Below, one piece after another: positions 40,302 through 51,654 of a stretch of DNA of 64,000 nt. The translations under genes and the position numbers were made by a program. Below the pieces are notes generated by a model. The model saw only the letters and a list, made by a program, of their open reading frames with translations. It was not told the DNA's origin and searched no databases. Location of the stretch: the NCBI GenBank assembly GCA_016204255.1, contig JACQLA010000005.1, positions 132,339 to 196,338 on the forward strand. Reading direction: 5' to 3'. Numbering within the stretch: position 1 is the first letter of the stretch; every line of letters begins with the position of its first letter. The DNA comes from Candidatus Microgenomates bacterium (GTDB taxonomy: Bacteria > Patescibacteriota > Microgenomatia > JACQLA01).

Positions 40302-40719
40302 GGGGATGTTAAGATTCGACGGGGAAGCACTTTGAAAACTGCAAGCCGACTTTGATCAAAAGCCGTTAAACAGGGTCAAAAAAACAAATGTCAACAAATT
40401 AGTTGGCAAGGTTACAGGAGCGATGAATGCGTTCGCGCGTGTTTTTACTCCGGTAGCTCCGAATTACGCTTTTGCCTAAAAGCGCTTTGGCGTAAAACGG
40501 CATTTATAGGGTTTTTTCCTGATGAGGCCTTATAGGTGTAAACCTAGTCAGGATGAGAAAAGTTGAGTAGCTGACGTCAGCTTTTCAAATAAAAAGTTAG
40601 CTAGTCTTAATTTTCCAGTCGAAAGGACCAGATTAAGGCGAAACTTTAAATTTCGACTAAGCTTGTAGAAATTTTCAATTTGAATTTCTCGGACCCGGGC
40701 TCATTACCCGGCATCTCCA
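40302..40719 (+). ncRNA. ssrA: tmRNA (ssrA); tag reading frame ends ...APNYAFA* (stop TAA 40477-40479); CCA not encoded
   Basis: 5' GGGGATGTTAAGATTCGACGGGG. 3' T-arm CCGGG/CCCGG. Acceptor GGGGATG pairs with CATCTCC, including the G3:U pair, with discriminator A. Tag ORF gct ccg aat tac gct ttt gcc taa. Confidence 0.8.
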
Positions 40720-40865
40720 CTCTTCGCTCCTAAGGTAAAACTTAGGAGCTGCGAGGTGGCACAGCCACTTTAATTAGTAAGTTCACGGGAATCATAGGCG
40801 GAGAGTGTCCCTACCGTAGCTCGCCAGAGCGAAGGGGGGCTTTTTTATTTTGATAGAATAATTTT

Positions 40866-41108
40866 GTGTATTATGTTTATATATTAAAGCTCAGAGATCA
40901 GACTCATTACATCGGATATTCGGCAGCTTTAAAAGAAAGAGTAAAAGAGCACGCTAAGGGAACTATTTCTCAAACAAAACATCTTTTACCGTGCAATCTT
41001 GTCTTTTATGCGGCTTTCTCATCTAAATTAAAGGCCTTGCAATTCGAAAAATATTTAAAAACTAACTCCGGCTTTGCTTTTAGAAATAAAAGATTGATCG
41101 AAAGATAG
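40866..41108 (+). CDS. small GIY-YIG (URI-domain) nuclease, copy 1 (80 aa)
   Basis: MYYVYILK...HYIGYS...RVKEH...VFYAAF carries the GIY/YIG/R/E pattern; lies 146 nt after the tmRNA 3' end. Confidence 0.8.
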   Translation: MYYVYILKLRDQTHYIGYSAALKERVKEHAKGTISQTKHLLPCNLVFYAAFSSKLKALQFEKYLKTNSGFAFRNKRLIER

Positions 41109-42724: not shown

Positions 42725-43453
42725 TTGATCGTCGTATACTACTATAAAGGTGTGATTTTATCAACTTTACTGGATCTTTTTTTCCCCAAGCGCTGTGTGG
42801 CATGCGGGAAGCATGGTTTCTATCTTTGTTTTTCATGCTTATCCCAGATTAAGTTTGTTAAAGATCCAGTTTGTCCGCTTTGCGAGCGTCCAGCGATCGG
42901 CGGCGCTGCTCATCCGGGTTGTCAAAAACAAAACAGCCTTGACGGTTTAATTTCTGTCTGTTTTTATCAGGGGCCGTTAAGGGAAGCTATTAAGCGGTTG
43001 AAATATAAACCGTGGATTACGGATTTGGGGCAGATTTTAGGTGAGATAATGATTAAAAACGAAAGGTTGTTGCGATTGATTAGTGATAAGGGCCAATGGT
43101 TTCTTATCCCGATTCCCCTGCATCCTAGCCGGGAAAGACAACGCGGGTTTAATCAATCGGAAATTTTAGGCAGGTTACTAGCTGAAAAATTAAAAATAGA
43201 CTTTAGTCCTGCCTTGCTGGTTCGGCAAAAAAGAACTTTACCACAGGCAGAATTACGGGGGACGGAGCGACAGCAAAATATCAGAGGCGTTTTTTCTCTC
43301 AACCCTCGAATTAATAAAAAGATTGATCTAAGGAATCGATCGATTCTTTTAATTGATGATGTTTGGACAACAGGTGCAACATTGCGTGCCGGCGGCCAAA
43401 TTCTTAAAAAATCCGGGGCAAAACGAGTTTGGGGTCTAACTCTGGCGCGTTGA
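42725..43453 (+). CDS. comF: ComF-family phosphoribosyltransferase-like protein
   Basis: N-terminal Cys4 (CVACG..CFSC..CPLC) and PRTase loop LLIDDVWTTGATL. Confidence 0.75.
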   Translation: MIVVYYYKGVILSTLLDLFFPKRCVACGKHGFYLCFSCLSQIKFVKDPVCPLCERPAIGGAAHPGCQKQNSLDGLISVCFYQGPLREAIKRLKYKPWITDLGQILGEIMIKNERLLRLISDKGQWFLIPIPLHPSRERQRGFNQSEILGRLLAEKLKIDFSPALLVRQKRTLPQAELRGTERQQNIRGVFSLNPRINKKIDLRNRSILLIDDVWTTGATLRAGGQILKKSGAKRVWGLTLAR

Positions 43454-43478
43454 ATCGAGGCTCGTTTTTTGCTATACT
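43450..43478 (+). promoter_or_regulatory. candidate promoter for tRNA-Ser(GCT): TTGAAT, 17-nt spacer, TATACT
   Basis: Read directly from the sequence; 10 nt upstream of the tRNA 5' end. Confidence 0.45.
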
Positions 43479-43488
43479 CAAGCTGACT

Positions 43489-43574
43489 GGAGGAGTGACC
43501 GAGTGGCTTATGGTGCAGGTTTGCTAAACCTGTGTCCTGTAAAGGGCGCGTGGGTTCGAATCCCACCTCCTCCG
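43489..43574 (+). tRNA. tRNA-Ser(GCT), class II, CCA not encoded
   Basis: Hand-folded cloverleaf: acceptor GGAGGAG/CTCCTCC, anticodon loop TTGCTAA, long variable arm, T-arm GTGGG-TTCGAAT-CCCAC. Confidence 0.85.
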
Positions 43575-43577
43575 CAA

Positions 43578-43644
43578 CGTAAGAAATCGCTAGGCGATTT
43601 CAACGTTGCTGGAGCGTTGAAATTCACGAAGTGAATTTCTTACG
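43578..43644 (+). repeat. 67-nt nested-palindrome leader (element D) between tRNA-Ser(GCT) and GIY-YIG copy 2
   Basis: CGTAAGAAAT|CGC-TAG-GCG|ATTTCAACG-TTGCTGGAG-CGTTGAAAT|TCAC-GAA-GTGA|ATTTCTTACG. All four helices are perfectly complementary. Confidence 0.7.
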
Positions 43645-43652
43645 CTGCCGCC

Positions 43653-43913
43653 ATGTTCTATTATGTATATATTCTCCGAAGCCAAAAAAGTGGTAGTCTG
43701 TATATCGGATATACGACAGATTTAATAAAGAGGTTCGAACAGCATAATAACGGTAAAAGTCAAGCAACAAAGCCATTCCGACCCTATAAACTTATTTATT
43801 ATGAAGCGTTTTTGGATAGAGTTGATGCAAAGAGGAGAGAGGTATATCTGAAAAGTGGATATGGGAGAAAAACGATAAATAGATTACTTAACAAATATTT
43901 AAAGCAGGGTTAG
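43653..43913 (+). CDS. small GIY-YIG nuclease, copy 2 (86 aa)
   Basis: MFYYVYILRS..LYIGYTTDL..RFEQH..LIYYEAF. Confidence 0.85.
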   Translation: MFYYVYILRSQKSGSLYIGYTTDLIKRFEQHNNGKSQATKPFRPYKLIYYEAFLDRVDAKRREVYLKSGYGRKTINRLLNKYLKQG

Positions 43914-45586: not shown

Positions 45587-45660
45587 GTGCCCGTAGCTTA
45601 ACTGGATAGAGCACAAGATTGCGGATCTTGAGGTTGGAGGTTCAAGTCCTCCCGGGCACG
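45587..45660 (+). tRNA. tRNA-Arg(GCG), CCA not encoded
   Basis: Acceptor GTGCCCG/CGGGCAC, anticodon stem CAAGA/TCTTG with loop TTGCGGA, T-arm GGAGG-TTCAAGT-CCTCC. Confidence 0.8.
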
Positions 45661-45662
45661 CA

Positions 45663-45723
45663 ACGTACAAAATCAAAGATTTTTACGTTGCTGAGACGTA
45701 AAATTACTTTGTAATTTGTACGT
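45663..45723 (+). repeat. 61-nt nested-palindrome leader (element A) between tRNA-Arg(GCG) and GIY-YIG copy 3
   Basis: ACGTACAAA|ATC-AAA-GAT|TTTTACGT-TGCTGAG-ACGTAAAA|TTAC-TTT-GTAA|TTTGTACGT. Same architecture as element D with different helix sequences. Confidence 0.7.
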
Positions 45724-45730
45724 CTCGCCC

Positions 45731-45982
45731 ATGTATTTTGTTTATGTGCTCAGAAGCGATAAAGATGCTAGCCTATACATAGGCTATACGGGTAATCTGA
45801 AAAAGCGTTTTATAGAGCACATCACCGGTTTGTCATTAGCCACGAGATATAAAAGACCTTACTCATTGATCTACTATGAAGCTTTTGTAGATAGAGTTGA
45901 CGCAAAAGACAGGGAAATTTATTTGAAAAGCGGCTGGGGCTTTAGAAGCATAAAAAAGATATTAAAGCGGTCTTTAAAGTAG
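45731..45982 (+). CDS. small GIY-YIG nuclease, copy 3 (83 aa; start moved from 45716 to the MYFVYVLRS ATG)
   Basis: MYFVYVLRS..LYIGYTGNL..RFIEH..LIYYEAF. The other copies all start directly at the M(Y/F)(Y/F)VY motif. The stop lies 2 nt before tRNA-Ser(CGA). Confidence 0.85.
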   Translation: MYFVYVLRSDKDASLYIGYTGNLKKRFIEHITGLSLATRYKRPYSLIYYEAFVDRVDAKDREIYLKSGWGFRSIKKILKRSLK

Positions 45983-46068: not shown

Positions 46069-46098
46069 CCCGTATCGCTAACGAAACTTCGCTAAGTT

Positions 46099-46183: not shown

Positions 46184-46267
46184 GGAGGAGTCGGATAGCG
46201 GTTCATTCCACACGCTTGGAAAGCGTGCGAGCGCAAGCTCACGTGGGTTCGAATCCCACCTCCTCCG
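46184..46267 (+). tRNA. tRNA-Ser(GGA)
   Basis: Acceptor GGAGGAG/CTCCTCC, anticodon stem CACGC/GCGTG with loop TTGGAAA, variable arm GAGC-GCAA-GCTC, T-arm GTGGG-TTCGAAT-CCCAC. Confidence 0.85.
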
Positions 46268-46269
46268 CA

Positions 46270-46312
46270 GCGTCAAACGCGGCTGGGACGTAAAATTACT
46301 GGCAATTTGCGT
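46270..46312 (+). repeat. solo leader-like element C (hairpin, GGCTGGG linker, ACGTAAAATT hairpin) with no GIY-YIG ORF
   Basis: GCG-TCAAA-CGC, GGCTGGG, ACGTAAAATT-ACTGGC-AATTTGCGT. Shares the GCTGGRACGTAAAATTAC core with elements A and B. Confidence 0.6.
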
Positions 46313-46334
46313 CTTGCCATTGATTATCTCTACT

Positions 46335-51175: not shown

Positions 51176-51236
51176 AATAGGCTGGATTTCTTCTTATTTG
51201 AATGATAAAATAGCAAGCGTAATTTAATACAATCCG

Positions 51237-51287
51237 CCACGTCTAGCGTGGCTGGAACGTAAAATTACTTTGTAATTTATACGTTCC
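51237..51287 (+). repeat. leader element B (hairpin CCACG-TCTAG-CGTGG, CTGGA linker, long hairpin GGAACGTAAAATTAC-TTT-GTAATTTATACGTTCC)
   Basis: The second hairpin differs from that of element A by a single G-to-A substitution (ACGTAAAATTACTTTGTAATTT[G/A]TACGT). Confidence 0.6.
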
Positions 51288-51337
51288 GCGGTAGCTCTCC
51301 GCCAGCTGGCGGAGGTAGAGTGGCGTCCTAAAGATAA

Positions 51338-51589
51338 ATGTATTTTGTGTACGCTATTTATAATAGAAAACACGGTAAAATTTATATTGGGCAAACGAAA
51401 GATTTAGAAACAAGATTGTATCTTCATGAAGAACATGTGTTTAACAATAGTTTTACCGCCATGTTTGATGGAGCTTGGGAATTAATTTATAAAGAGGCGG
51501 TGGAGGATCGCAGACGAGCTTTGTTAAGAGAAAAACAACTCAAAAGTTTTAGAGGAAGAGAATTTGTAAAAAGACATATTCCGCGGTAG
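51338..51589 (+). CDS. small GIY-YIG nuclease, copy 4 (83 aa); stop codon lies inside tRNA-Asn
   Basis: MYFVYAIYN..IYIGQT..RLYLH..LIYKEA; the last codons ccg cgg tag are tRNA-Asn positions 2-10. Confidence 0.75.
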   Translation: MYFVYAIYNRKHGKIYIGQTKDLETRLYLHEEHVFNNSFTAMFDGAWELIYKEAVEDRRRALLREKQLKSFRGREFVKRHIPR

Positions 51590-51654
51590 CTCAATGGTAG
51601 AGCAAATCCCTGTTAAGGATGAGGTTGCTGGTCCGAATCCAGCCCGCGGAGCCA
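51580..51654 (+). tRNA. tRNA-Asn(GTT), CCA encoded
   Basis: Acceptor TCCGCGG/CCGCGGA, D-arm GCTC-AATGGTA-GAGC, anticodon loop CTGTTAA, T-arm GCTGG-TCCGAAT-CCAGC, GCCA 3' end. Confidence 0.85.

Follow-up and report, generated by a model that had tools for sequence, protein, structure and literature searches.

In a 64,000-nucleotide stretch of DNA from a Candidatus Microgenomates bacterium (assembly GCA_016204255.1, contig JACQLA010000005.1, positions 132,339 to 196,338 of the forward strand; hereafter the window), we found that the spacers between two tRNA genes and the small GIY-YIG nuclease genes that follow them are filled by copies of a repeat of about 75 nt, which folds as two imperfect hairpins in tandem joined by a linker of 1–2 nt. 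Copies of this repeat abut tRNA genes throughout the related loci that we collected from bacteria of the candidate phyla radiation (CPR), and on balance we favor reading it as a mobile palindromic repeat, comparable to REP (repetitive extragenic palindromic) sequences and MITEs (miniature inverted-repeat transposable elements), that sits at tRNA boundaries and has the GIY-YIG nuclease as its probable partner. That these sequences form a mobile repeat family located at tRNA ends seems to us highly probable; that the GIY-YIG protein is the nuclease mobilizing them is a more tentative proposal.

The window has two full copies, both on the + strand. Element D (43574-43652; 78.8 bits against a covariance model of the repeat) lies between tRNA-Ser(gct) (43489..43575) and GIY-YIG copy 2 (43653..43913, 86 residues), and element A (45660..45729; 73.5 bits) lies between tRNA-Arg(gcg) (45587..45661) and GIY-YIG copy 3 (45731..45982, 83 residues, 61% identical to copy 2), the stop codon of which is 1 nt before tRNA-Ser(cga). 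An earlier note on this DNA had described both elements as leaders of the GIY-YIG genes folding into a junction-free, four-helix cloverleaf; however, the boundaries it gave (43578-43644 and 45663-45723) are too narrow, the element extending from the tRNA discriminator base G73 (43574 for tRNA-Ser, where the acceptor 3' strand ends at 43573, and 45660 for tRNA-Arg) to the GCC that follows the second hairpin. In element D, hairpin 1 (43574..43609) reads GCAACGT-AA-GAAATCGC tag GCGATTTC-A-ACGTTGC, its base being formed by G73 and a 3-nt trailer paired with TTGC, with a conserved 2x1 internal loop above; the encoded end of this tRNA-Ser (G-CAA) has no CCA. Hairpin 2 with its GCC (43611..43652) reads GGAGCGT-T-GAAATTCAC gaa GTGAATTTC-TT-ACGCTGCC and then GCC; in type it mirrors hairpin 1, and the start codon of GIY-YIG copy 2 stands directly after the GCC. 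Element A consists of hairpin 1 (45660-45691), a single linker T (45692), hairpin 2 (45693-45726) and GCC, and represents a second stem type (ACGTACAAA../..TTTTACGT), here called A-type, in which one bulged nucleotide, C or G, replaces the 2x1 loop of D.

The conserved fold is the tandem pair of hairpins, and of this we have next to no doubt. On the narrower coordinates, D and A fold far better than shuffled sequences (z = -6.0 and -5.5, with 0/200 shuffles equally good), the minimum-energy fold being a single long imperfect hairpin and not a cloverleaf. When the flanks were included (on the left G73 and the trailer of 3 nt, four bases in all; on the right eight bases for D and six for A), both sequences folded into two tandem imperfect hairpins at -38.4 (D) and -29.2 (A) kcal/mol with RNA parameters; this is the tandem arrangement that the earlier note had mentioned as an alternative. 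With DNA parameters the same fold scored -28.4 and -22.1 kcal/mol, and the complementary strands -28.0 and -21.9 kcal/mol. The explicit four-helix structure imposed on the flanked sequences reached only -21.3 (D) and -11.7 (A) kcal/mol, weaker by 17 kcal/mol in both copies and with a Boltzmann ensemble probability of ~1e-13. The segments listed for the cloverleaf are indeed exact complements by string checks (CGTAAGAAAT/ATTTCTTACG, CGC/GCG, ATTTCAACG/CGTTGAAAT and TCAC/GTGA in D; ACGTACAAA/TTTGTACGT, ATC/GAT, TTTTACGT/ACGTAAAA and TTAC/GTAA in A), and these two copies, to which that test was confined, do allow four helices to be drawn that leave no junction base unpaired. This cross-complementarity arises because hairpin 2 mirrors hairpin 1. 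TGCTG(G)AG, which had been taken for a conserved loop at the center, combines the 3' foot of hairpin 1 (TTGC), the linker of 1–2 nt and the 5' foot of hairpin 2.

Comparison across homologs gave the same answer. Tandem hairpins were the minimum-energy fold in nearly all of 60 related spacers, and RNAalifold returned them unguided. In a MAFFT alignment of 34 canonical elements the tandem model was paired in 98.0% of cells against 87.3% overall for the cross-paired model (86.3% in its closing helix and 83.3% in its central helix); both sides had changed in 19 of the 29 tandem pairs, the covariation score was 0.468 (0/500 shuffles as high), and column-slid controls paired at 38-44%. These values uphold the proposal that selection acts on structure over primary sequence. 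A register-anchored test of 57 elements found canonical pairs at 97.5% for the tandem model and 81.6% for the cross-paired one, the variable positions showing three to five pair types in the former and about 50% canonical pairing in the latter; in the alignment the cross-paired columns were unpaired in about half of the sequences (10:72 in 15/32, 13:69 in 17/34, 31:55 in 16/34 and 34:52 in 17/34). An independent metagenome sample gave 98% for tandem pairing and 78.5-86% for cross-pairing, and over more than 140 homologous elements the tandem model retains 97.5-98% of its pairs, many with double-sided changes. In addition, loci that mix A-type and D-type hairpins (L076, L080, L054, L050 and L051) keep both hairpins and break the cross-pairing. 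Many homologs were found, and at variable columns substitutions break the two long-range helices of the cloverleaf in about half of them; the covariation claimed for all four helices between A and D holds for the two hairpin tips, which are common to both models and supply the bulk of the covariation of the cross-paired model, and fails across homologs for the other two. By energy and by covariation the cloverleaf was rejected as the fold of the element.

The homologs define a consistent anatomy for the spacer. The last GC of the flank, which in direct copies is the discriminator G73 and the next base, is where hairpin 1 starts, and the 3' arm of this hairpin finishes with the four bases complementary to those of the flank. 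Written from left to right, the pattern is G73 and three trailer nucleotides; hairpin 1, CGTAA(G/T)AAAT .. tip .. ATTT(C/A)AACG followed by the complement of the four flank bases; the linker T(G); hairpin 2, NNN-ACGTT(G/T)AAAT .. tip .. ATTT(C/A)TTACGT-N'N'N'; the right end GC(C/A), to which hairpin 2 leads through YYC; and, in most loci, a start codon 3-25 nt past hairpin 2. The flank and complement pairs observed were GCAA/TTGC, GCAG/CTGC, GCCA/TGGC, GCCG/CGGC and GTCG/CGAC, and covariation links the foot of hairpin 1 to the tRNA trailer (column 3:40, AU 24 and CG 8; column 4:39, AU 24 and GC 8). A stable stem thereby encloses the discriminator base and, in some copies, an encoded CCA as well. 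Stem types tend to match within a locus, hairpin 2 being A-type in six of ten copies with an A-type hairpin 1.

To place the copies we used 80 genomic loci fetched around relatives of the GIY-YIG protein and a separate sample of metagenome contigs scanned for the junction word described below; a covariance model built from the element alignment was run on the window and on the 80 loci. The repeat or a derivative stands directly 5' of about 77 of the 80 genes in this GIY-YIG subfamily, and a same-strand tRNA gene lies 23-257 nt upstream in 62 of the 80 loci (Ser 49, Asp 10, Arg 2, Glu 1); nine of the other 18 loci are too near a contig end, and most of the rest have a decayed tRNA 3' half or an end resembling that of transfer-messenger RNA (tmRNA) before the element. 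Direct copies occur immediately 3' of tRNA-Ser, Asp, Arg and Glu genes and of tmRNA. The covariance model also found at least 14 further copies in the 80 loci that have no GIY-YIG gene downstream, some of them forming tRNA-tRNA spacers and others inverted against tRNA 5' ends, and in locus L066 a tRNA-Arg gene has copies on both sides. Among the metagenome contigs, 57 direct copies were directly after a tRNA gene, with a GIY-YIG gene downstream in 21, none in 31 and a contig end nearby in 5, i.e., the gene follows 21 of the 52 direct copies with enough downstream sequence (~40%); 18 inverted copies abut the 5' ends of tRNA-Gly, Pro or Gln genes, none with a GIY-YIG gene, and about 14 copies follow remnants resembling tRNA ends. 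The element is thus not a leader of GIY-YIG genes specifically, as the earlier note had it, most copies in this unbiased sample being without the gene downstream.

In all of these classes, direct or inverted, the junction on the top strand of the element is ..CCGC|NNCGT.., and the empty tRNA-end site carries the word ..CTCCGCCA... The same word recurs whichever strand carries the tRNA, so the copies are addressed by DNA sequence, at the outer edge of the acceptor stem. Two side observations concern these loci. ARAGORN assigned the anticodon ACT to a tRNA-Ser beside the GIY-YIG gene in eight of them (L010, L012, L018, L019, L022, L055, L059 and L071), calls that are unusual for bacteria and could be a real CPR feature or a mis-call. 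Several loci (L001, L003, L004, L012, L052, L073 and others) come from metagenome-assembled genomes labeled Gammaproteobacteria, Pseudomonadales, Actinobacteria or Brocadiales despite a CPR-type arrangement, and these are probably mislabeled or contaminated bins.

The copies behave as members of a mobile family would. The covariance model found four in less than 8 kb of the window, in differing states of decay: in addition to D and A, there is a relic (46267..46318, + strand, 26.3 bits, E = 6e-4) directly 3' of tRNA-Ser(gga) (46184-46268), followed by an unrelated 140-residue open reading frame (ORF) and no GIY-YIG gene, and a reduced copy (51236..51290, + strand, 47.0 bits) upstream of GIY-YIG copy 4 (51338..51589, + strand, about 37-40% identical to copies 2 and 3). 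The reduced copy has a full hairpin 2 but only a stub of hairpin 1 (CCACG tcta CGTGG), and it is preceded by a word resembling a tRNA 3' end, TCCGCCA, without any tRNA. Elsewhere we found hairpins nested within hairpins (L001, L009, L012, L020, L030, L031, L039, L056, L063 and L079), hairpin 1 interrupted by an inserted module (L002, L029, L066 and L075), and tandem or truncated relics (L042, L047, L049, L058, L059, L061 and L056). In L066 one copy has the tip module AATCCCGATTTGATCGGGATT in its hairpin 1 and another copy has it in hairpin 2 (1188-1269; 273-354), and so hairpin modules are exchanged between positions. Presence and absence also vary at a conserved site. The syntenic relative L204 has a cytidine deaminase 78% identical to that of the window, the order SmpB, ComF, tRNA cluster, DnaG, and the same six tRNAs; the element was not found there at E-values up to 1, and there is no GIY-YIG gene. 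L005 and L066 carry the same tRNAs as the window, differently occupied by the element.

Across CPR/Patescibacteria lineages, relatives of the 86-residue partner protein number in the hundreds, at 70-85% identity. Copies 2, 3 and 1 of the window scored 62.1, 46.6 and 49.2 bits against the Pfam GIY-YIG model (gathering cut-off 22.6). Against solved structures, the family profile matched the UPF0213 proteins best (1zg2, 7e-12; 1ywl, 7e-9) and SLX1 next (7cq2, 3.5e-6; 4xlg, 1e-5), bearing out the relationship to SLX1 proposed in the earlier note, while I-TevI (1mk0) gave E = 0.33. Y6, Y17, G19 and Y20 do not vary within the family alignment, and conservation of R27 and E51 is at least 90%; by analogy with other GIY-YIG enzymes, the conserved Tyr of GIY, Tyr of YIG, Arg and Glu would be the catalytic residues. 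The minimal stand-alone SLX1 lineage, the branch matched here, has been described (PMC1564403). Protein subtype goes with tRNA and stem type, proteins like copy 3 following tRNA-Arg and A-type stems and those like copy 2 following tRNA-Ser and D-type stems.

Expression of the GIY-YIG gene appears to depend on the tRNA. We found no promoter-like or terminator-like site in the interval between tRNA and ORF; the distance from hairpin 2 to the start codon has a median of 9 nt (3-25 nt), and a Shine-Dalgarno-like word precedes the gene in 0/67 loci versus 8/40 long ORFs of the window by the same crude test. As the gene lacks its own promoter, a terminator separating it from the tRNA and a Shine-Dalgarno word, co-transcription with the tRNA is likely, and for copy 2 read-through would come from the promoter-like site (TTGAAT, 17 nt, TATACT, with TG; 43450..43478, + strand) just 5' of tRNA-Ser(gct). 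Two readings of hairpin 2 were discarded: an intrinsic terminator, the hairpin being followed by GCC and ATG with no T run, and a promoter within it, where no site was found and which was dropped because the spacing of the -35-like and -10-like words depends on the variable tip. As to whether the fold acts as RNA or DNA, it is about equally good on both DNA strands, and minus-strand covariance scores are just 10-20 bits lower. Over 142 unique pooled elements, the tRNA-sense strand of direct copies showed 36 G.U pairs against 9 A.C pairs, but the first two pairs of hairpin 2 account for 25 of the G.U pairs; a first sample had given 26 versus 6, and the 14 inverted copies are too few for the reciprocal test.

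We suggest that the repeat belongs with REPs and MITEs as a miniature mobile DNA element, inserting at the boundaries of tRNA genes, and that copies would persist only when they land outside the mature tRNA and fold compactly; the compensatory maintenance of the stems would then be seen because only compactly folding copies survive. A SLX1/UPF0213-type GIY-YIG protein would be a structure-specific nuclease that cuts at the base of an extruded hairpin or at the GC target, and we infer that such a cut moves the repeat, or carries the nuclease gene itself into the repeat. Staggered cuts of 2 nt are typical of GIY-YIG enzymes. As a lead only, the junction word CCGC| coincides with the position at which the GIY-YIG restriction enzyme Cfr42I cuts CCGC/GG (PMC2241918), and the GCs on either side of the element would fit a 2-nt staggered cut. 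A fully specified version, which as a whole we regard as doubtful though conceivable, has a SLX1-type protein without a DNA-binding domain recognizing the twin hairpins by shape, making a staggered 2-nt cut at the tRNA-end GC and moving the ~70-bp element, sometimes with its own gene, to a 3' or 5' tRNA boundary, with the flanking GC as a 2-bp duplication and expression by read-through from the tRNA promoter.

Several observations weigh against a nuclease-driven mobile element. We know of no GIY-YIG enzyme that acts as the transposase for such repeats, and a literature search found none. The proteins here are 80-86 residues long, a single minimal domain without a DNA-binding domain, and in the SLX1-like branch some bacterial proteins are fused to a TrmH-like tRNA methyltransferase (PMC1564403). 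No locus-specific target-site duplication was detected, the similarity between left flank and right end being no greater within loci than between loci, although a 2-bp duplication of GC is possible. No conserved right end or structure was found after the GIY-YIG stop codon, so the hairpins and gene together are unlike one bounded transposon. The copies within one genome are diverged (D and A are ~70% identical) yet 97-98% paired, which looks more like selection at each copy than a recent burst. Finally, the abutment to mature tRNA ends and the pairing of G73 and trailer would also fit a role in RNA processing.

That last point leads to an alternative in which the repeat is a host RNA module: the hairpins would mark or insulate tRNA ends in operon transcripts as processing sites or exonuclease blocks, the fully paired 5' end would stabilize the GIY-YIG mRNA and permit translation without a Shine-Dalgarno word, and the protein might act on these RNAs. 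The exact start of hairpin 1 at G73 with covarying trailer pairing, the stems kept in diverged copies, the lack of promoter, terminator and Shine-Dalgarno word between tRNA and ORF, the excess of G.U over A.C and the TrmH-like fusion in the same protein branch (PMC1564403) all speak for it; however, we consider it unlikely, as the G.U excess is confined to two positions, the inverted copies keep the same DNA junction on the opposite tRNA strand, and nested, split, truncated and tandem copies exist. Moreover, L204 has the same six tRNAs and none of the elements, and the element is therefore dispensable, and a stem enclosing G73-CCA should impede rather than aid 3' maturation. A second alternative separates the two partners, with an independent repeat and a free-standing GIY-YIG homing gene that targets its right end (..ACGYYCGCC), the hairpin-only copies being empty sites. 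The start codon always 3-25 nt beyond hairpin 2, the presence of the gene at ~40% of direct copies and at no inverted copy, and the absence of a conserved right end after the ORF, which a homing gene would be expected to show, speak for it, and with T4 SegB a GIY-YIG homing gene is already known from a tRNA cluster (PMC2330249). To this proposal, too, we assign a low probability: the protein is a bare SLX1-branch domain of 86 residues, with the poor I-TevI match noted above, few obvious pseudogenes were seen, and the downstream flanks are unrelated between sites, so that ordinary two-sided homing cannot account for spread between different tRNAs.

The remaining alternative is the cloverleaf itself, as RNA or as cruciform DNA, switching to tandem hairpins and serving as a four-way-junction substrate or regulator for the GIY-YIG protein. 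In its favor, both window copies allow all four helices to be drawn, the stem types of hairpins 1 and 2 tend to agree and the nuclease is related to SLX1; set against the energy deficit, a minimum-energy fold of another shape even on the narrower coordinates, long-range columns that are unpaired in about half of the homologs and broken in mixed-type loci, and its neglect of the conserved G73/trailer pairs and of 3-4 bp at the base of hairpin 2, these points leave it very improbable.

Among the closest known counterparts of the mobile repeat is the REP/REPIN-RAYT system, which by analogy would follow the same logic with another enzyme and another address. As here, REPs are short imperfect palindromes whose inverted doublet can be drawn as two hairpins or one long one (PMC3116915, PMC3337134, PMC3733652), they are multi-copy and extragenic with a structure maintained over the long term, and a single nuclease gene goes with them, which nearly always has the repeat at its flank although most repeats have no gene. 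The REPIN partner, however, is an HUH Y1 transposase (RAYT) and not a GIY-YIG protein of the SLX1/UPF0213 type, and we found no HUH domain in the neighboring ORFs scanned. The arms here begin and end with ACGT, whereas the palindrome of a REP is tagged at one end by GTAG or CGTC (PMC3733652); our copies are confined to tRNA boundaries, whereas REPs are dispersed among 3' untranslated regions, and the repeat is on one side of the gene only. Elements of the IS200/IS605 group and their miniature derivatives likewise have imperfect hairpins with conserved extrahelical bases and bases at the hairpin foot that pair with the flank, and they insert beside a short fixed word without an obvious duplication, as the copies described here may also do, but here there is no TnpA or TnpB, the hairpins are adjacent rather than at the two element ends, and the targets are tRNA ends. 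Small mobile elements made of two hairpins, often near tRNA genes and endonuclease ORFs, are also found in fungal mitochondria; these are organellar, are unrelated in sequence to the CPR repeat and lack its precise abutment to tRNA ends. Such double-hairpin elements and GC clusters are named in PMC4478555 and PMC7218506. T4 SegB is similar in that a GIY-YIG gene is wedged among tRNA genes and varies in presence between relatives (PMC2330249); SegB-type enzymes, however, come from the I-TevI/UvrC lineage and bind DNA through a C-terminal domain, unlike the bare SLX1-lineage domain here (PMC1564403), and our gene is tied to a structured repeat and its family is essentially absent from viral contigs. 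The stand-alone UPF0213/SLX1-like proteins (1zg2, 1ywl; PMC1564403) share the sequence family and the minimal architecture, SLX1 being a structure-specific nuclease.

Three other ideas about the element were set aside. The resemblance of its right end to a displaced tRNA 3' end is a generic YYC-GC likeness and nothing more. A phage origin was not borne out, a pattern scan of viral contigs giving two chance matches and a protein scan one distant match at 49%. The complement of the tRNA 3' end was rejected as a primer-binding site, as it spans G73 and the unprocessed trailer and not the mature CCA end.

Our literature search returned no description of this element, and the Rfam 15 covariance models gave no match on it at E-values up to 1, matching the tRNAs and tmRNA alone; the ~75-base repeat at CPR tRNA gene ends is thus apparently undescribed. 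In the literature searched we likewise found no function, target or association with tRNA-end hairpins for bacterial UPF0213/SLX1-like proteins, a very common family that now gains a concrete candidate substrate, with one subfamily tied to a defined hairpin and address in hundreds of loci. Should the nuclease prove to move the repeat, the two would make up a REPIN-like system that depends on another enzyme fold and is targeted to tRNA boundaries. The repeat also accounts for much of the odd spacing of tRNA clusters in CPR genomes and for spurious ORFs, and marks sites of rearrangement, and the stem around the discriminator, and sometimes around an encoded CCA, bears on how such tRNAs mature.

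Further observations concern the neighborhood of the GIY-YIG genes. The start of a small XRE-type helix-turn-helix gene (ATGGCGAAAATCGCCAAAGC.., MAKIAKALGVSIEEL), sometimes apparently truncated, recurs beside the GIY-YIG gene or the twin hairpin in L032, L045, L077 (after the GIY-YIG stop codon), L170, L053 and L036. In the window, a tmRNA at 40302-40722 was found by Rfam and missed by ARAGORN, and the divergent GIY-YIG copy 1 (40866-41108; 37-39% identical to copies 2 and 3) starts 144 nt after it; there is no twin hairpin between the two, while locus L041 has one after a tmRNA-like 3' end. Between the reduced element and GIY-YIG copy 4, positions 51297-51314 form a perfect 18-nt palindrome, CTCCGCCAG|CTGGCGGAG, which consists of a word resembling a tRNA-Ser 3' end and its own complement, and the 3' end of copy 4 overlaps tRNA-Asn (51580-51654) by 10 nt. 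The spacer between tRNA-Ser(cga) and tRNA-Arg(ccg) contains TCGCTAA twice (46072-46098); the same word builds a long variant of hairpin 1 (ATCTTAGCGA/TCGCTAAGAT) in L002, L029, L066 and L075, and the pair may be another relic of the element. Lastly, a spurious 43-residue ORF (43503-43634) runs across tRNA-Ser and element D, and within hairpin 2 of element A a spurious TTG start at 45716 lengthens GIY-YIG copy 3 (45716-45982).

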